From Dehalococcoidia bacterium (lineage in GTDB: Bacteria > Chloroflexota > Dehalococcoidia > Lucifugimonadales > Australimonadaceae): DNA of 64,000 bases. Each line of letters begins with the position of its first letter. Positions within the stretch are counted from its first letter, which is position 1. Below are positions 27,663 through 57,046 of this stretch, piece by piece. The position numbers and the translations under genes are program-made. The notes beneath the pieces were generated by a model. The model had not been told where the DNA came from and did not search any database. It was given only the letters and a program-made list of their open reading frames with translations. The stretch spans positions 212,040 to 276,039 of the forward strand of contig DAOUJO010000007.1 of the NCBI GenBank assembly GCA_034422595.1. Direction: 5' to 3'.

Positions 27663-29183
27663 CTAGTCCTGGTGGTAGTACTCCAGGCCGAGGTGGGTGA
27701 TCTGCTCCTCGCCCATCATCCAGCGCAGCGTGTTCTTGAGCTTCGTCTGCTGGATGAACAGGTCGTGCTCCGGATAGAGGTTCCGCGCATGGTGCGGGCT
27801 CTTGAAGTAGAACGAGAGCCACTCCTGGATGCCGGACATCCCGGCGCGCTGCGCCAGGTCCATGAAGAGGATGAGGTCCAGCACGATGGGCGCGGCGAGG
27901 ATGGAGTCGGAGCAGAGGAAGTCAATCTTCATCTGCATCGGATGCCGCAGCCACCCGAACAGGTCGACGTTGTCCCAGCCCTCCTTGGCGTCCCCGCGCG
28001 GCGGGTAGTAGTTGATACGCACCTTGTGATAGGCGTCGCCGTAGAGGCCCGGGTACATCTCCGGCTGCAGGATGTGCTCCAGCACGCCGAGCTTCGACTC
28101 CTCTTTCGTGCGGAAGTTCTCGGGCTCGTCGAGCACTTCGCCGTCGCGGTTGCCGAGGATGTTGGTGGAGAACCAGCCGTTCAGCCCCAGCATCCGCGCC
28201 TTCAGCATCGGGCCGATGACCGTCTTCACGAGCGTCTGGCCGGTCTTGAAGTCCTTGCCGCAGACGGGTACGCCTCTGTCCCGCGCCAGCCGTTCGAGCG
28301 CGGGGATGTCGACCGTCAGGTTAGGCGCGCCGTTGATATACGGAACGCCCTCCTGCAGCGCGGCGTAGGCGTAGATCATCGACGGCGCGATGTTCGGGTC
28401 GCTCGCATGGAGCGCGGAGACGAAGCCCTCGATGTCCTGGTGTATCTCTTCCTCGGTAATGAATTTCTCGGTGGATGCGCACCAGATCATCACCAGCCTG
28501 TCGCAGCCGTTCTCAGCCTTGAACCGGCGCATGTCCTCGCGGATGGCGTCGACGGCGCTGAGCTTGCTCTCGACCGTTTTGACGTTCGCGCCCTCGATGC
28601 GCTTGGCGTAGTCCTGGTCGAAGACCGCCGGCATCGGCTCGATCGACCTGAGATAGTCCGCGATGGGTTCGATCTCGGCGTAGCGGTCGAGCACCCCTGC
28701 CCGGAGCGCCGCCTCGTACGCATTGTCCGGGATCGGGTCCCACGCGCCGAAGACCAGCTGGTCGAGCTCCGCGAGCGGTACGAACTCCTTGATGAACGGC
28801 GCACGGCTGTCAGTGCGCCTCCCGAGGCGGATCGTCGCCATCTGCGTGAGCGAGCCAACCGGCTCGCCGGAGCCGCGTCGTATGTGCTCGACGCCCGCGA
28901 TCACGGTCGACGATACGGCGCCCAGGCCCACCATCAGCACGCCGAGTTTCCCGTCCGCGGGTCCGACGCCATTCGAGACCGACTCCATGAAGTCACTCGG
29001 GTCGAGGCCGATGCCGCGCCTGCGGGCGAGGTCCATCAGCGTGCCGTGCCACTGCGCGGGGATCCTCCCCGTCCGCGCCCAGTGCTGCACGGTGCTCTGA
29101 CGCCTGCCCAGCAGTCCCGCGAGCGCGGACTGCCCTCCGAACCGGTCGATGATCTGCTTTGCGGTGTTGTGTTGTGTGCTCAT
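27663..29183 (-). CDS. Inositol-3-phosphate synthase (MIPS) family protein with an N-terminal Cro/YdaS-like HTH extension
   Basis: Residues from about 78 (KLGVLMVGLGAVSSTVIAGVEHIRRG...) to the end follow the bacterial/archaeal MIPS layout. Residues 8-60 (AKQIIDRFGGQSALAGLLGRRQSTVQHWARTGRIPAQW) look like a Cro/YdaS helix-turn-helix. Confidence 0.7.
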   Translation of the reverse strand: MSTQHNTAKQIIDRFGGQSALAGLLGRRQSTVQHWARTGRIPAQWHGTLMDLARRRGIGLDPSDFMESVSNGVGPADGKLGVLMVGLGAVSSTVIAGVEHIRRGSGEPVGSLTQMATIRLGRRTDSRAPFIKEFVPLAELDQLVFGAWDPIPDNAYEAALRAGVLDRYAEIEPIADYLRSIEPMPAVFDQDYAKRIEGANVKTVESKLSAVDAIREDMRRFKAENGCDRLVMIWCASTEKFITEEEIHQDIEGFVSALHASDPNIAPSMIYAYAALQEGVPYINGAPNLTVDIPALERLARDRGVPVCGKDFKTGQTLVKTVIGPMLKARMLGLNGWFSTNILGNRDGEVLDEPENFRTKEESKLGVLEHILQPEMYPGLYGDAYHKVRINYYPPRGDAKEGWDNVDLFGWLRHPMQMKIDFLCSDSILAAPIVLDLILFMDLAQRAGMSGIQEWLSFYFKSPHHARNLYPEHDLFIQQTKLKNTLRWMMGEEQITHLGLEYYHQD

Positions 29184-30555: not shown

Positions 30556-30569
30556 CACATCTCCACTAA

Positions 30570-30619
30570 CACCCGCCGCTTCCCTCATCGCCCTCTGCCC
30601 ACGTACCCTATGTTCATGC
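30570..30619 (+). repeat. Left copy of an about 50-bp imperfect direct repeat bracketing low-GC island 2
   Basis: ACACCCGCCGCTTCCCTCATCGCCCTCTGCCCACGTACCCTATGTTCATG. I counted 35/50 ungapped identities with 31796..31845. Confidence 0.55.
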
Positions 30620-31790
30620 AGTGGTAACGCCGTCGACAGCGCAGTGCTGACATCATATGCCGGAAGCCAAAGTCAACTCGTGTCAGGTGATTCGCGGCGT
30701 GCCACCAATGCAACTCGACACTCACACTGGGGAGCGACCGAATGACCAATGAGATTACAACATGCCGGATCTGGGGTGATGATTTCACAGCCGTCGGAGA
30801 AAACATCCCCGAGCTCGACAGGATTACAGTAACTGAGTCCCCTCGCGCAGGTGGAGGATACACAGTCTCTAGTGGCATCGTTCGACACCTCGACAATCTT
30901 GATGACGGAGGGAAGGCTCAGCTCACTTCTTGGTTAGTAGATCAGCGAGAGCAGGGAAATAACTGTCCCATTGTGACGGAGGAAGCAATTGAATACGCGA
31001 CCCGCAAGCATAGGCTTCCAGTTTATGAGCGTGCTGAAAGATTGCTTAAGTTCCTTTCCAAACAAACTATAGTAGCAGGAGAAGGCATTTCATTAATCAA
31101 ACACTCCAGGGGCTGGGAGGAGTTCCCTCAGAATTCAAACGGTCAGCCAATCTTTCCGGATGTGCCGACAAACCCGTTTGTGCTAGGTGCGATGGCTTGG
31201 TCAGAGTCCATTACAGATAATGAAGTTTCATATTTGGTCGACTACCTAGAGGATGAGGGTTGGGTACGGGAGACTTTCAAGCGAAGTGGTGTATTCTCTC
31301 GTTCGCATCGATATTTGGTCACTGTTGGCGGGCATGTCCGAATCTCTGAAGAGGCAGCCAATGTAGATTCTTCTCAAGTCTTTGTGGCAATGTGGTTCGA
31401 TGACTCCCTTTCGCAGGTATACGATGAAGGAATCGCACCTGCGATCTATGACTGCGGATTTGAGCCAAAGAGAATCGACCGCGATTCTACGGTCGACAAG
31501 ATTGATGATGCCATAATTGCAGAGATTAGGCGGTCACGCTTTCTTGTCGCTGACTTCACACATGGCGACGATGGAGCAAGAGGGGGAGTGTACTACGAAG
31601 CTGGTTTTGCACATGGTCGCGGCATTCCCGTTATCTTTACCTGCCGTGGCGACATGATTGAAAAGATCCATTTCGATACACGCCAATACGCTCATATCAC
31701 CTGGAACAGTACGTCTGAACTACGCGAAAGCCTACGCGATAGAATATTGGCGCGGATCGGAGAAGGTCCGACCATAGCGCAGTAGTGGGC
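30620..31790. other. Compositional (low-GC) island 2
   Basis: The 60-nt lines I counted are 38-52% G+C, against about 72% in a counted flanking line. Contains one ORF only. Confidence 0.75.
30742..31785 (+). CDS. Hypothetical protein: unassigned N-terminal region + winged-helix-like segment + C-terminal nucleoside 2-deoxyribosyltransferase/TIR-like domain
   Basis: 347 aa with GGGGAG RBS 8 nt upstream. The C-terminus VFVAMWFDD...RFLVADFTHGDDGARGGVYYEAGFAHGRGIPVIF fits the NDT/deoxyribohydrolase/TIR-like Rossmannoid pattern. SYLVDYLEDEGWVRE...YLVTVGGHVRISE is wHTH-like. Confidence 0.6.
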   Translation: MTNEITTCRIWGDDFTAVGENIPELDRITVTESPRAGGGYTVSSGIVRHLDNLDDGGKAQLTSWLVDQREQGNNCPIVTEEAIEYATRKHRLPVYERAERLLKFLSKQTIVAGEGISLIKHSRGWEEFPQNSNGQPIFPDVPTNPFVLGAMAWSESITDNEVSYLVDYLEDEGWVRETFKRSGVFSRSHRYLVTVGGHVRISEEAANVDSSQVFVAMWFDDSLSQVYDEGIAPAIYDCGFEPKRIDRDSTVDKIDDAIIAEIRRSRFLVADFTHGDDGARGGVYYEAGFAHGRGIPVIFTCRGDMIEKIHFDTRQYAHITWNSTSELRESLRDRILARIGEGPTIAQ

Positions 31791-31795
31791 TCGCG

Positions 31796-31845
31796 ACACC
31801 CGCCCCTTTCGCAGTCGTCCCCTGCCCGCGTACGCTGGTCCCATG
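31796..31845 (+). repeat. Right copy of the about 50-bp imperfect direct repeat bracketing low-GC island 2
   Basis: ACACCCGCCCCTTTCGCAGTCGTCCCCTGCCCGCGTACGCTGGTCCCATG. It begins 11 nt after the island gene's stop. Confidence 0.55.
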
Positions 31846-31890
31846 AACGGAGCGACGGATACAGGACGCCCACTCACCCCACCGGCGCGG

Positions 31891-32016
31891 GTGAGCAGGG
31901 ATGAGGCGGTTTCGGGTGGTTCTGAGCGGAAATGAGCTGCGGATGAGCGGTTTTGAGCAGTTGAACCGCTCATCGGAAGGGCCGGTCCCAGAGGTGGATT
32001 CCTGCCCGATGAGCGG
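31891..32016 (+). repeat. Array of helically phased nTGAGCGG motifs with an embedded perfect 11-bp inverted repeat
   Basis: TGAG cores at 31892, 31902, 31923, 31933, 31944, 31954 and 32010. An inverted copy has CTCA at 31969. Hairpin GATGAGCGGTT-N11-AACCGCTCATC spans 31942..31974. The shared 11-mer CAGAGGTGGAT is at 31989..31999. Confidence 0.7.
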
Positions 32017-32107
32017 TAATGCACAGCATTTCCCCCGGAACTTTCGCTGGCGCGCCGGTTTTGCTAGCCTCACACGCAGGCAGACACCAGATGCCACGGA
32101 GGAACGG

Positions 32108-33118
32108 ATGGCCACAACAGCAGGGACCGCGCAGGAGGAGTTGGCGCAGCTGACGCCGGAGGAGCTCTACGCCCTCTACATGGAGAAGCAGGTGAACTTC
32201 GGGCGCGCCGCGCTCGCGCTCGACAAGCGCAGGAAGCTGGGCCGCGTCCACGTCCCCGCCGAGGAGGCCGACGTACCGAACGCCGGGCCGAACCAGCGCA
32301 TGATCGTGGGGCCGGAGCTCGGCTTCAACGTCCACAACCTGCACGTCTTCACCTCGGGGCGCGCGGGCGGCTCGGAGCGCTACCACACCCACGGCGACGC
32401 GCTCAAGTTCTACGTCAAGGGCGGCGGACAGGAGCTCATCGAGGACGTGCGCTTCGACGTGAAGGTCGGCGACTTCTGCCACATCCCCGCAAACATCTGG
32501 CACGGCACCGAGAACCCGCACCCGGAACCGCTCGTCTTCCTCGCCGCGCAGCAGTTCCCCGGCACATACCGGCAGGTGCCGACGCCGTTCGTCCACCTCA
32601 CCGCGCCCCACAAGGCACCGGAGGTGAGCGACCTCTCGGACGAGGAGCTGGCAAAGCTGGAGCCGTGGCCGCTATACCTCCGCTACCTGGAGGAGCAGAT
32701 GGCGTTCGGGCGCATCGCGATGGAGATGCAGCGCAGGCGCGAGCAGAAGCGCCTCCACGTCCCGGCGGAGGAGGCGCCCATCATGGAGTGGGGCCCCGGC
32801 AGGCACCACGTCATATCGCCGGAGCTCGGCTTCGACATCTACTCGTTCCAACTGTTCATGGAGAACGTCCCCGCGCACACGGAGAACGGCGCGCCCCAGA
32901 CCTCCGGCGACGCCGTCCGCTACTACATCAGCGGCGAGGGCGTCGAGATCATCGGCGAGGAGCGCGTCCGCGTGCGCGCGGGCGACTTCACCTGCATCCC
33001 CGCAGGAACCCGCCACGAGACGACGAACGCGCACGACGAGGACCTGCGCTTCATCTGCTGGCAGCAGATACCAGGCACCTACGTGCAGGTGCACTTGCCC
33101 GTCCTGCCCGTGGAGTAA
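32108..33118 (+). CDS. Bicupin protein (gentisate/quercetin dioxygenase-like fold)
   Basis: ATG 32108 after GGAGGA. There are two internally homologous halves (LGRVHVPAEEA... / KRLHVPAEEA...). The first cupin has HTHGD...H metal ligands; the second is degenerate (QTSGD). Confidence 0.7.
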   Translation: MATTAGTAQEELAQLTPEELYALYMEKQVNFGRAALALDKRRKLGRVHVPAEEADVPNAGPNQRMIVGPELGFNVHNLHVFTSGRAGGSERYHTHGDALKFYVKGGGQELIEDVRFDVKVGDFCHIPANIWHGTENPHPEPLVFLAAQQFPGTYRQVPTPFVHLTAPHKAPEVSDLSDEELAKLEPWPLYLRYLEEQMAFGRIAMEMQRRREQKRLHVPAEEAPIMEWGPGRHHVISPELGFDIYSFQLFMENVPAHTENGAPQTSGDAVRYYISGEGVEIIGEERVRVRAGDFTCIPAGTRHETTNAHDEDLRFICWQQIPGTYVQVHLPVLPVE

Positions 33119-56056: not shown

Positions 56057-56620
56057 TTACCCTGCGGACAGCACGCCGCAGGCGACGCGCCCCCCTGCCC
56101 CACCGATGGGCTGCGTAATGTGGTCGTCGCGGTTCTCGTGGACGACGATAGCCGAGCCGTCGTCGTCCATGAGCATGTCCGCGTCCACGAGCGTCGTGAA
56201 CATCTCCGCCTGCGCCGTCCCGTCCGCGGCGACGTAGATGTTCGGCAGATCGCCGTTATCCGGTCCCTCGGGATTGAGCAGCCCGTGCTGCTTGTCGTGC
56301 ACGTTGATGTGCCCACCGGACGCCTTGAAGTCCGGGCTGCACGAACCGATCGTGTGGATGTGGATGCCGTGGAAACCCGGTTCGAGCCCTTCCAGCATGA
56401 CTGTCACCAGGAAGCCGCGCGTCGGCGACTGCTCCATGACGACCGTGCCGATGGCGTCGCCGTCCACGTTCTGCATCCGAGCGGTCAGGCGCGCGTCGCC
56501 CCCGCTGCTCTCCGATCCCACGGAAACCGAGAGATTGCACGCGGCAGACGCGAGCGCGATAAGCGATATAATCAGAACGATCCCTGTCGTTACGGATACC
56601 AAGCGGTTTCTGGGCCCCAT
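56057..56620 (-). CDS. sodC: Cu/Zn superoxide dismutase-family protein with an N-terminal membrane anchor/signal
   Basis: GFHGIHIHTIGSC copper-site motif and C-terminal GGAGGRVACGVL. Hydrophobic N-terminus IVLIISLIALASAAC. Confidence 0.8.
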   Translation of the reverse strand: MGPRNRLVSVTTGIVLIISLIALASAACNLSVSVGSESSGGDARLTARMQNVDGDAIGTVVMEQSPTRGFLVTVMLEGLEPGFHGIHIHTIGSCSPDFKASGGHINVHDKQHGLLNPEGPDNGDLPNIYVAADGTAQAEMFTTLVDADMLMDDDGSAIVVHENRDDHITQPIGGAGGRVACGVLSAG

Positions 56621-56682
56621 GCGTACTCCTAAGTAATGACGATGCTCAAAGCATAACAGCGCATCTGAATCCCCGTGAAAAA

Positions 56683-56807
56683 CCGCTCATCTGCGCTCAT
56701 TCCGCGCTCATCCACCTCTGTTTCCGCGCCCTGCTCAACCTCCCCAAATCGCGCGAAACCGCTCATTACCGCCTCATTCCCGCGCGAAACCGCCGATAGC
56801 CGCTCAC
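56683..56807 (-). repeat. Second, inverted copy of the phased ATGAGCGG-motif array
   Basis: CTCA cores at 56686, 56696, 56707, 56734, 56762, 56773 and 56803 on the + strand. The 11-mer ATCCACCTCTG at 56710..56720 is the reverse complement of CAGAGGTGGAT at 31989. Confidence 0.65.
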
Positions 56808-57046
56808 GCTATTGCACTCCTGTGACCACAACCTGCGGCGCGGCGTTCCGCCGGACAACCGCCGTAGCTGCAACATTCTGTAACACTTCGCAACATCCCT
56901 CTCCCGCGACCCGGCCCCGCGCCCGGGCAGCCCCACGCCGACGCCACGCCGCCGAAGACAGCGTACGCGGCCAGGGCGCGACCGCGAAAGAGGCGCGTGT
57001 CACCGATCGCAGCAAAGGGAGGGATGTGGAAGTGCGGCGATTGCGG

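Follow-up and report, generated by a model that had tools for sequence, protein, structure and literature searches.

The cluster of TGAG-containing motifs in the 322-bp non-coding gap in front of the bicupin operon is a genuine phased array, and it forms the middle of a modular non-coding element of about 260 nt (31795-32052) which recurs upstream of functionally unrelated genes in related genomes. We consider it most likely, although the judgement is a tentative one, that this element is a reused promoter-plus-operator cassette carrying head-to-tail putative sites of the OmpR/PhoB/SARP kind. The window referred to below is the whole stretch of 64,000 nucleotides that was analysed; the features located in it are listed in Table 1, and homologous loci in other sequences are given by their numbers (L053 and the like).

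Phased array in the gap upstream of the bicupin operon

On the two strands of the gap, eight matches to TGAGSNG were counted, against a mean of 0.53 and a maximum of 4 in 2,000 dinucleotide-preserving shuffles. Elsewhere in the window the density of this motif is 0.40 per 322 bp, and the window as a whole shows no enrichment (70 matches, 59 +/- 7.6 expected). The cores in the gap are spaced by 10, 11 or 21 nt and include a perfect 11-nt inverted repeat, and shuffled sequences reached the A/T periodicity of about 10 bp in 2 of 500 cases for this array and in 0 of 500 when the second copy of the element in the window was shuffled. An earlier note on this DNA had described the array as phased with the helix and non-coding, and both points are borne out, the second also by indels which break the reading frame between orthologs. 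Its consensus, TGAG(C/G)(G/A/T)G, does not cover the unit at 31902, TGAGGCG. No Chi-like orientation bias of TGAGCGG in the window was apparent in the match list.

A position matrix compiled from 113 units in 21 homologous copies has the consensus G-R-R-A-TGAGC-G-G-W-W, in which TGAGC is invariant by ascertainment. The next position is G in 75 of the 113 units and the one after it in 92; the two positions following the core are A or T in 73 and 69 units, respectively, and the position preceding it is A in 92. Core-to-core spacings in these copies were 10 nt (29 cases), 11 nt (20 cases) and 20-22 nt (9 cases). A 21-nt super-unit is seen both as repeat family D1 in the window and as a 21-nt duplication in L053.

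The proposal that the array resembles operator sites set along a single face of the helix agrees with these spacings. Sites of the OmpR/PhoB/SARP type combine a conserved core of 6-7 bp with a less conserved, often A/T-rich linker of 3-5 bp, lie about one helical turn (10-11 bp) apart from centre to centre, and have extra repeats at one or two turns; each of these features was found in the array. The last array units end about 15-30 bp 5' of the TTTCGC that would serve as -35 in the window, the promoters being predicted from sequence, and the other copies have no -10 at the right distance.

Modules of the element and their conservation

The boundaries of the element are fixed, and its modules always follow in the same order: the TTTCGC-N18-TACGCT 5' module, the phased array, the CAGAGGTGGAT box, two more units and a 3' end containing TTTCGC. 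The 5' module is kept in 36 distinct copies, in all of which the spacer is 18 nt long while its sequence varies; covariation was looked for in a putative hairpin of this spacer and none was found. The invariant length and free sequence of the spacer, together with TTCCGC-N18-TATAAT in front of the gene at L122 and TTTCGC-N17-TAGCCT in the window, suggest that the 5' module is a promoter, with a probable start near A31843, although TTTCGC matches TTGACA poorly. The 5' and 3' modules were also compared by eye with sigma-54 and ECF promoters; spacing and consensus gave no consistent fit, and these readings were rejected.

Among eight orthologous copies the mean pairwise identity of the 5' module is 0.90, compared with 0.805 at the 4-fold sites of the bicupin gene, while the spacers of the element have identities of 0.41-0.65. 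The core blocks evolve more slowly than the neighbouring 4-fold synonymous sites, and at least nine copies from different species and loci share an identical 23-nt block, GGAATGAGCGCAGATGAGCGGTTT. In the conserved array core about 20 columns have identities of 0.93-1.0, and its inverted arm has been retained as a motif, not through compensatory change. The two window copies together contain the arrangement AATGAG-N5/6-ATGAGCGGTTT three times; the box, which reads CAGRRGTGRAT in all copies, lies at a constant distance of 45-46 nt from ATGAGCGGTTT in subtypes A and B alike. The number of units in the upstream half of the array differs among species, the duplication in L053 being one case, and the 3' end directly repeats the -35 part of the 5' module (repeat D2, 31799-31817 and 32034-32052).

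It would be conceivable that a small protein beginning at ATGAGCGGTTT (MSGFE...) is encoded in the array, or that the array extends the bicupin at its N-terminus, a reading to which we give hardly any credence. All copies have an open MSGFE frame, ORF 31901-33118 of the window shares its frame with the bicupin gene, and in subtype B the variable columns are distributed 4/5/9 over the codon positions, with a pN/pS of 0.37 against 2.04 and 0.94 in the other frames. In subtype A, however, the distribution is 10/10/11 and pN/pS is 0.66 against 0.79 and 0.84, without a codon signature; single-nucleotide indels shift frame or stop between orthologs, the lengths ranging from 19 to more than 46 codons; in-frame stops occur in L033, L061, L074 and L113; and the start lacks a conserved ribosome-binding site.

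Table 1. Features of the element and of related sequences in the window
Feature	Position	Strand	Sequence or remark
Lone diverged 5' module	30569..30609	+	TTCCCT-N18-TACCCT; between Rieske gene stop and island gene
5' module	31795..31839	+	GACACCCGCCCC, then TTTCGC (31807-31812), 18-nt spacer, TACGCT (31831-31836)
Fast-evolving spacer, 5' module to array	31840..31884	+	identity 0.44-0.79, indels
Upstream half of array, poorly conserved	31885..31922	+	units 31892, 31902 and degenerate units; identity 0.41-0.66
Conserved array core	31923..31974	+	direct units 31923, 31933, 31944, 31954, then inverted CCGCTCA; identity 0.875
Forward TGAG cores	31892, 31902, 31923, 31933, 31944, 31954, 32010	+	TGAGCAG, TGAGGCG, TGAGCGG, TGAGCTG, TGAGCGG, TGAGCAG, TGAGCGG, in this order
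Inverted core copy	31966-31972		CCGCTCA
Perfect 11-nt inverted repeat	31942-31952 / 31964-31974		GATGAGCGGTT, N11, AACCGCTCATC
Second perfect inverted pair, 12 nt	31965-31976 / 32006-32017
Box, Shine-Dalgarno-like	31989..31999	+	CAGAGGTGGAT; exact in both window copies; identity 0.83
3' cluster, two units	32009..32026	+	ATGAGCGG, AATGCACAG; repeat family D1
3' end of element	32027..32052	+	TTTCCCCCGGAACTTTCGCTGGCG; identity 0.84
Putative hybrid bicupin promoter	32042..32070	+	TTTCGC (32042-32047) from element, 17-nt spacer, TAGCCT (32065-32070) from ancestral bicupin promoter
Second element copy, subtype B, diverged, inverted	56660..57001	-	upstream of sodC
Second copy, 5' module	57001-56959	-
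Second copy, mini-array	56896-56868	-	AATGTTRC
Second copy, main array	56806-56680	-
Second copy, box	56720-56710	-

Distribution of the element family

A genome scan of contigs found at least about 25 Dehalococcoidia/Chloroflexota loci and an independent scan with the 5' module a further 15. At least about 35 copies beyond the window occur in Dehalococcoidia/Chloroflexota MAGs and sponge-metagenome contigs. The family is confined to a clade of uncultured, largely sponge-associated Dehalococcoidia. One MAG carries at least four copies, all chromosomal, and copies are retained at orthologous loci across species-level divergence. Viral contigs gave chance matches only and searches of phages and plasmids were empty, on which grounds a phage or plasmid origin was discarded; a literature search found no relevant description of such a repeat from Chloroflexi or sponge symbionts.

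The element and the gene downstream of it have the same orientation in about 14 of 18 independent loci. These are housekeeping or catabolic genes of unrelated function: they include bicupin/XDH, sodC, Rieske oxygenase, SAM decarboxylase, binding protein, aminotransferase, glyoxalase, MutS2 and NAD kinase genes, among others, so that homologous upstream regions stand before non-homologous genes. Sibling elements share the 5' module and have different units (TGAGCAG, TGTCYCA or TTTGGCNCA), and every subfamily combines forward units with at least one inverted unit. In a sibling subfamily the same 5' module is accompanied by hairpins. An IS110 bridge RNA was considered for this hairpin subfamily and rejected; no recombinase gene lies downstream, and the downstream gene appears by sequence to be a NAD kinase gene.

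These data bear on an unlikely alternative, that the element is a mosaic repeat with no function beyond carrying a promoter, spread by duplication and recombination, whose units are by-products of slippage or unequal crossing-over (concerted evolution). Consistent with it, the array flanks change rapidly in unit number and sequence, the whole element is tandemly duplicated at L133, the unit sequences differ among subfamilies, the same genomes hold several other interspersed palindromic repeats, and homologous upstream regions before non-homologous genes are a known phenomenon (PMC3575422). Against it, the central units, the box and the 3' end are conserved above 4-fold sites, the GGAATGAGCGCAGATGAGCGGTTT block is shared by different species and loci, and copies are held at orthologous loci; moreover, about 190 kb of flanking sequence contained no extra copies, which shows that the family is not a high-copy one. 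The family has a moderate copy number and a positional association. The suggestion that the region might belong to an abundant repeat family without such association is therefore right in that the family is multi-copy, but the copies lie upstream of genes and are co-oriented with them, their number is moderate and their blocks are under purifying selection. The element is not REP-like filler.

Putative hybrid bicupin promoter and neighbouring genes in the window

The placing of the array in the regulatory region of the bicupin operon stands; the 3' end of the element overlaps the putative hybrid bicupin promoter (Table 1). TTGACA-N17-TAGCCT is present at the bicupin promoter in L002-L005, L015, L053, L074 and L112, and the TTGACA is lost in the window, L033, L061 and L113. 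From this comparison we infer that in the window the 3' TTTCGC of the element has replaced the -35 of the bicupin promoter.

It had also been suggested that the array binds the protein of the preceding island gene through a winged-helix segment. At L113 the element follows the Rieske stop directly and there is no island gene, and the island protein itself scores as a TIR-like effector and not as a DNA binder, which speaks against this suggestion. Among the 117 neighbouring proteins no regulator was recurrent, and neither was any integrase or transposase family.

The neighbours of the element copies in the window are Rieske, TIR-like, bicupin, XDH and sodC genes. The second copy precedes sodC (Cu/Zn superoxide dismutase; 56620..56057, minus strand), and an ortholog of this subtype B copy is carried by L119. 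The idea that the two inverted copies are the ends of a transposon of 25 kb was dismissed: the DNA between them consists of ordinary catabolic and transport genes without a transposase, and in other species each of the two is conserved along with the gene downstream of it.

The 5' edge of the element deserves separate mention. In every orthologous group synteny breaks exactly at GACAC, and the gene upstream of the bicupin-locus element varies by species (Rieske, TIR-like, TIR-STAND, VapBC, DUF4160 and lipoprotein genes); the inserted genes of the window and of L074 are flanked by a diverged extra 5' module, L074 (1738-1777) repeating the window layout of extra 5' module, inserted genes and full element. 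The variable, defence-rich DNA abutting this edge marks a reproducible insertion hotspot. One could imagine that the edge is an attachment or recombination site which receives foreign genes, mostly of defence and toxin-antitoxin systems, and that the array provides arm-type sites for a recombinase or accessory factors. We think this very improbable, since no integrase or transposase recurs near the copies, target-site duplications and inverted termini are absent, the extra 5' modules precede the inserted genes like ordinary promoters, and a break just upstream of a promoter is expected at any operon boundary.

The absence of a recurrent integrase or transposase and of viral, phage and plasmid matches likewise argues that the element is not the end of a mobile element. 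Its ends are direct rather than inverted (D2), no target-site duplication is present at GACAC and the orthologous copies are fixed, unlike MITEs or transposon ends. No attC or integrase att core sites (RYYYAAC...GTTRRRY) were found in the 5' module, although islands do abut its edge. Tn7- or Mu-like ends do not fit in unit length or terminal sequence, and no tRNA or tmRNA att site was present in the search.

Recognition of the array as DNA or as RNA

A promoter in the 5' module would mean that the array is transcribed. A serious rival to the cassette, possible though doubtful in our estimate, is accordingly that the 5' module drives a largely unstructured purine-rich RNA of about 200 nt, whose AUGAGCGG units and GAGGUG boxes bind or titrate an RNA-binding protein or the 30S subunit in the manner of CsrB or the TRAP leader, or that alternative hairpins with the inverted unit control the gene in cis. 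In CsrB/RsmZ and the TRAP-binding trp leader, many short purine-rich motifs lie in a transcript with its own promoter; the element resembles them in having many copies of such a motif behind a putative promoter of its own.

Several observations are compatible with a role at the RNA level. The promoter-like 5' module stands at a fixed upstream distance in all copies, the orientation to the downstream gene is consistent, and across 31850-32150 both GC skew and AT skew are strongly positive. Purines predominate in the sense strand, the units contain AUG, the boxes CAGAGGTGGAT and CAGGAGTGGAATG look like extended Shine-Dalgarno sequences, and forward units are accompanied by inverted ones in every subfamily. 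In the sibling hairpin subfamily 9 of 30 pairs show compensatory changes, a count that comes from only four sequences.

The array subfamily itself behaves otherwise. It shows no covariation, the hairpin arm having decayed without compensation in L074, L112 and L053; its folding energy is no better than that of shuffles (z-scores -0.85 and -1.19); and the RNAalifold covariation term of +0.53 lends no support to a conserved fold. At gathering thresholds Rfam gave no match in the window, the only hit being a chance snoRNA match (E 0.42), and neither a covariance-model match nor compensatory changes point to a riboswitch or other Rfam-type RNA; the earlier idea of a structured RNA is thus not upheld. 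Nor does the array look like a CsrB-type sponge: the GGA expected for CsrA precedes only some units, the motifs are not presented in hairpin loops, their period is 10-11 nt and not 5, and no terminator is present. A period of 10-11 nt with A/T linkers is the helical repeat of DNA and has no obvious meaning in RNA.

The orientation of the array points the same way. L122 is an ortholog of the L034/L091 copy and stands before the same Rieske oxygenase gene, but the 8 units of its central array run in the opposite direction, with both the 5' and the 3' module in the usual orientation; at L066, in the same genome, the array is likewise reversed. Such arrays would yield the complementary RNA, and the inversion therefore favours recognition as double-stranded DNA, although it comes from one species and forward and reverse units could still pair in RNA.

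Proposed reused promoter/operator cassette

Under the favoured explanation, a reused promoter/operator cassette, the 5' module would be a sigma-70-type promoter (TTTCGC-N18-TACGCT) and the phased units would be double-stranded DNA sites to which a regulator binds head-to-tail on one helix face. Each unit would consist of the 7-bp core TGAGCGG and a 3-4-bp A/T-rich linker, paired units making 21-bp dimer sites, and binding would follow the mode of OmpR/PhoB/ArcA/SARP-type winged-helix regulators. It may be nucleated at two or three strong sites in the centre and extended by the weaker, fast-evolving flanking units, and the bound array, lying between the promoter of the element and that of the downstream gene, would set the transcription that reaches the gene. 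The whole cassette would have been copied to new genes by promoter reuse, and in the window its 3' TTTCGC would have taken over as the bicupin -35. Against this explanation, the downstream genes form no obvious regulon, and the differing units of the siblings would require more than one regulator, or else selection that acts on the period and not on a single recognition sequence.

A broader and rather improbable conception is that of portable cassettes of an undescribed class, in which a shared promoter module is joined to interchangeable "address" modules, copied before unrelated operons and read by a family of matching DNA- or RNA-binding factors, the 5' edge doubling as a preferred landing site for defence genes. 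The address modules would be either phased arrays (of TGAGCGG, TGAGCAG, TGTCYCA or TTTGGCNCA units, depending on the subfamily) or hypervariable covarying hairpins.

In the uncultured sponge-associated Dehalococcoidia the cassette offers a handle on gene regulation: it could be used as a DNA or RNA bait for finding the putative binding factor, it is a probable strong promoter for this lineage, and the element may serve as a marker of operon starts in the annotation of MAGs.

Comparison with known repeat systems

Plasmid iterons and type Ib/II centromeres, such as the 11-bp repeats of R1 parC, lie beside rep or par genes on their replicon. The element shares with them short tandem direct repeats at about one helical turn, which are bound cooperatively in iterons and parC, but it is chromosomal, has at least four copies in a genome and precedes metabolic genes with no rep or par gene nearby. 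Iterons are, moreover, 17-22-bp repeats accompanied by a rep gene and an A/T-rich unwinding element at an origin, whereas the units here measure 10-11 nt and the plasmid search gave no copies, so that the comparison with iterons made earlier is not supported.

REP/BIME sequences and other small intergenic repeats are modular, and some are bound by DNA-binding proteins (PMC2817692, PMC3333891). Like REP/BIME, ERIC, BOX and Correia elements, the present element is intergenic and multi-copy with modules in a fixed order. Unlike REP/BIME, which are high-copy palindromes of 20-40 nt in alternating orientation, it has direct repeats with one inverted unit, lacks a REP-type palindrome unit and any apparent RAYT association, and lies upstream rather than 3' of genes in a strict orientation.

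ArcA direct repeats are spaced 11 or 22 bp from centre to centre, with two to five repeats per site (PMC3798270), and SARP sites consist of heptamers with 4-nt or 3-nt spacers (PMC10972967). As in ArcA sites, pho boxes and SARP operators, the element has cores of about 7 bp with 3-4-bp linkers, spacings of 10-11 or 21-22 bp in direct orientation, two strong and additional weaker repeats, and perhaps a position at or upstream of the -35, which is here a predicted one. It differs from these operators, which have 2-5 repeats evolved in place, in that 8-12 units lie in a cassette of about 260 nt copied between genes, in a design that also comprises one inverted unit and, at a distance of 55 bp, a second cluster, and in that its putative sites are known from sequence.

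Reused or putative mobile promoters are highly similar upstream regions before non-homologous genes within and between related genomes (PMC3575422), as is the case here. The present element is much longer than a core promoter, modular and equipped with a phased array, and its copies, instead of being nearly identical, are old and have diverged. On the proposed reading it would be a clear case in nature of an entire promoter/operator region being reused before unrelated genes, a region which in the window appears to have replaced an existing -35.

The phased array and its element

The TGAG cores and the perfect inverted repeat that the earlier note had described in the gap between the low-GC island gene and the bicupin gene were confirmed at their positions and are real and non-random. 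The sole error in that observation was the consensus TGAG(C/G)(G/A/T)G, from which TGAGGCG at 31902 departs; the array unit consensus is G-R-R-A-TGAGC-G-G-W-W. Compared with shuffled sequence, as the earlier note had proposed, the cluster stood far above chance: the gap has 8 motif matches, and 2000 dinucleotide-preserving shuffles averaged 0.53 and reached 4 at most. The motif density elsewhere in the window was 0.40 per 322 bp, and no window-wide enrichment was found. The units, spaced by 10, 11 or 21 nt, pair into 21-nt super-units (repeat family D1), and the A/T content of the array has a period of about 10 bp, at a value matched by 2 of 500 shuffles.

Self-comparison of the window revealed a second, diverged copy of the whole element. 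Both copies are composed, in the same order, of a 42-nt 5' module, GACAC(C/G)CGCC(C/T)CTTTCGC-N18-TACGCTG; a spacer; an array of (A)ATGAGCGG units; an exact CAGAGGTGGAT box with ATGAGCG 9 nt on; and a 3' end with TTTCNC...TTCGC. The window's third copy is partial and comprises only the 5' module. Within the second copy there is also a distinct mini-array, in which about three AATGTTRC units repeat every 10 nt; the copy at the related locus L034 has it too.

Locations of the element and associated features (L-numbers are related loci on other contigs)
Feature	Position	Strand	Remark
myo-Inositol-1-phosphate synthase ORF	window 27663-29183	-	
Partial copy, 5' module alone	window 30569-30609		between Rieske gene stop and low-GC gene
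Low-GC island gene	window 30742-31785	+	
Gap	window 31786-32107		322 bp
TGAG cores	window 31892, 31902, 31923, 31933, 31944, 31954, 32010		in the gap
Perfect inverted repeat	window 31942-31974		GATGAGCGGTT-N11-AACCGCTCATC
Inverted unit	window 31966-31972		CCGCTCA
Bicupin gene	window 32108-33118		
Second element copy	window 57001-56660	-	diverged
AATGTTRC mini-array	window 56868-56896	-	inside second copy
Array-less siblings	L129:7344-7543	-	
	L132:421-620	-	
	L135:1337-1536	+	
	L142:7181-7380	+	
Tandem element	L133:6635-7620	+	
Array in Planctomycetota MAG	L085:6017-6127	+	JBBRPR010000002
Diverged element in Chloroflexota MAG	L021:2990-3260	-	JAPOOH010000087

Distribution, position and conservation

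Judged by its bicupin homologues, the window belongs to uncultured Dehalococcoidia/Chloroflexota. When one genome per species was scanned with the pattern AATGAG-N5/6-ATGAGCGGTTT, the matches listed were mostly due to chance; among them, at least about 25 from Dehalococcoidia/Chloroflexota MAGs carry the same element, module for module, and one fragmentary MAG holds at least 4 copies. Metagenome contigs were scanned independently for the 5' module alone, and 15 loci emerged, most of them in the WGS sets LXNJ, LXNI and MKWU, which we take to be sponge metagenomes. The viral contigs, phage records and plasmids searched yielded no real matches. About 190 kb flanking the ascertained copies contained no additional ones, which suggests a moderate copy number.

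Two main subtypes were distinguished. Subtype A, to which the copy in the gap belongs, precedes the bicupin/XDH operon in eight species. Subtype B, that of the second window copy, stands in front of sodC in the window and at L119, and elsewhere in front of genes for a Rieske oxygenase, SAM decarboxylase/agmatinase and others. A co-oriented gene comes next downstream in about 14 of 18 independent loci, starting 20-260 nt past the element. The downstream genes are functionally unrelated (bicupin/XDH, Cu/Zn SOD, Rieske oxygenase, SAM decarboxylase, binding protein, aminotransferase, glyoxalase, MutS2, NAD kinase, amidohydrolase, M20 peptidase and carboxylase). Element and downstream gene stay together across species while the upstream neighbour changes, and homology ends exactly at GACAC on the upstream side. 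The bicupins of eight element-bearing genomes are 92-97% identical to that of the window, and in genomes with 80-85% bicupin identity (L002-L006) the element is missing and a plain TTGACA-N17-TAGCCT promoter stands in its place; thus, the element at the bicupin locus has long been kept by vertical descent in a genus-level clade and is not a recently mobile repeat.

Mean pairwise identity among eight orthologous copies was 0.90 for the 5' module, 0.875 for the central units with the inverted unit (about 20 columns being near 1.0), 0.83 for the box and 0.84 for the 3' end, as against 0.805 at 4-fold degenerate sites of the adjacent bicupin gene and 0.41-0.65 in the spacers and the upstream half of the array. 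The latter regions also hold indels; in L053, for example, two units (21 nt) are duplicated. The element is thus built as a mosaic, its blocks under constraint and its linkers free. At least nine subtype-B copies, drawn from different species and loci, share the block GGAATGAGCGCAGATGAGCGGTTT without a mismatch. Such constrained blocks make it unlikely that the element is a purely selfish or neutral mosaic repeat. It belongs to an undescribed, clade-specific family of reused upstream cassettes, which falls under known kinds (multi-repeat operators, reused promoters and mosaic intergenic repeats) and forms no new category.

Several related arrangements were also observed. At L133 the whole element (5' module and TTTGGCNCA array) is tandemly duplicated, about 492 nt apart, upstream of an apparent biotin carboxylase gene. 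Other interspersed palindromic repeats, for example CCCCTCTCCC-N-GGGAGAGGG hairpins and GTCATKYYGAGCGGAGCCG...CTCTCGGG-type palindromes, adjoin elements at L015, L074, L093, L103, L133 and other related loci, often wedged between element and downstream promoter. At L085, in a different phylum, (G)AATGAGC recurs about 13 times, every 10-11 nt, just upstream of a DUF7021/DUF2262 protein gene; the Dehalococcoidia 5' module is absent there. The diverged element at L021 lies directly upstream of a 97-aa ORF (MAEINVSTLRRWQQDPVFRDEL...) whose sequence pattern recalls phage small-terminase/HTH proteins; a Pfam search with it gave no match.

Nature of the array

The structured RNA suggested in the earlier note found no backing: Rfam gave no match to the element, folding energies were ordinary (z-scores -0.85 and -1.19), the RNAalifold covariation term for ten subtype-A copies was positive, and one palindrome arm decays uncompensated in three species. 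A coding role is likewise unsupported. An ORF starting MSGFE at ATGAGCGGTTT is open in all copies; there is no codon-position signal in subtype A and a weak one in subtype B, and single-nucleotide indels shift frame and stop between orthologues.

The most discriminating fact on DNA versus RNA is an inversion. L122, the orthologue of the L034/L091 copy before the same Rieske oxygenase, has its eight-unit central array inverted (CCGCTCA), with 5' module, box and 3' units in the usual orientation, and the array of L066, a second copy in that genome, is likewise reversed. A double-stranded DNA site tolerates inversion; an RNA motif does not. Because of this inversion, the helical period and the A/T linkers, recognition as double-stranded DNA is ranked before an RNA reading as the best available interpretation of the sequences.

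Among the options in the earlier note, an operator array is the best available, and the iteron reading is wrong. Winged-helix ArcA (PMC3798270) and SARPs (PMC10972967) bind head-to-tail repeats with the same geometry as the array: a 7-bp core with a 3-4-bp linker, 10-11 bp from centre to centre, and a few strong repeats with weaker extras at one or two turns. No recurrent regulator gene was found among 117 neighbouring proteins, whose recurrent families are Rieske/LigXa, cupins, DNA methylases, AAA_21 and PIN. This, together with the differing modules found behind a shared 5' module, lowers our confidence in the operator reading.

The 5' module and its sibling modules

In 36 distinct copies the 5' module keeps TTTCGC (variants TTCCGC and TTGCGC) and TACGCT (pattern TAnnnT), separated by exactly 18 nt of free sequence; judged on sequence, this conservation is the pattern of a promoter. 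A possible hairpin in its spacer showed no covariation. TTCCGC-N18-TATAAT precedes the L122 gene, and in the window, L033, L061 and L113 TTGACA is gone and the element's 3' TTTCGC has become joined to the ancestral TAGCCT, 17 nt upstream of it; other relatives still have TTGACA. From these arrangements we infer that TT(T/C)CGC is a putative -35 hexamer.

In the metagenome scan, differing modules turned up downstream of the same 5' module: TGAGCAG arrays; AATGTCYCA arrays with inverted TGAGAY/TGGGAC units further on; TTTGGCNCA arrays; and an array-less subfamily with 10-13-nt stems. The AATGTCYCA or TTTGGCNCA arrays stand behind the same CAGGAGTGGAATG-type box. Array-less members have two CCATAGAC...GTCTATGG palindromes and then a conserved scaffold (CGCGGGAAGCAGGCCACGGCC, ACTCGT) holding the variable stems, which are fully different between orthologues yet complementary, with compensatory changes at 9 of 30 pairs among four sequences; the gene downstream of the element in L129 and L142 appears, by eye, NAD kinase-like. 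This sibling looks like a transcribed, structured leader RNA and is a candidate for one. Should the shared module be a promoter, the array would be transcribed too; its sense strand is purine-rich and the boxes resemble Shine-Dalgarno sequences. On these grounds a leader-RNA role for the array, though the less probable reading, is a serious rival to DNA recognition.

The site upstream of the element

The island protein (347 aa) has a TIR-like effector score in its C-terminal domain (PADLOC PDLC00733, E 2e-9) and a weak Nuc_deoxyrib_tr match. The array had been proposed as its binding site; at L113, however, the element directly follows the Rieske gene stop, and in other species the island gene's place is taken by a TIR-STAND protein (L015), a VapBC pair (L074), a DUF4160 protein (L053) or elsewhere a lipoprotein, so the array is not the site of the island protein. 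Immediately 5' of the element lies an insertion hotspot for foreign genes, most of them of defence or toxin-antitoxin type. In the window and L074 the inserted genes have a diverged extra 5' module in front, which may be their promoter. That the 5' edge is an att site has little support, since no recombinase, duplication or inverted ends were found.

The N-terminal 40 or so residues of the myo-inositol-1-phosphate synthase ORF in the window match Cro/YdaS-type helix-turn-helix models (E 6e-5 and 1.6e-3), which could reflect an unusual fusion or a mis-called start.
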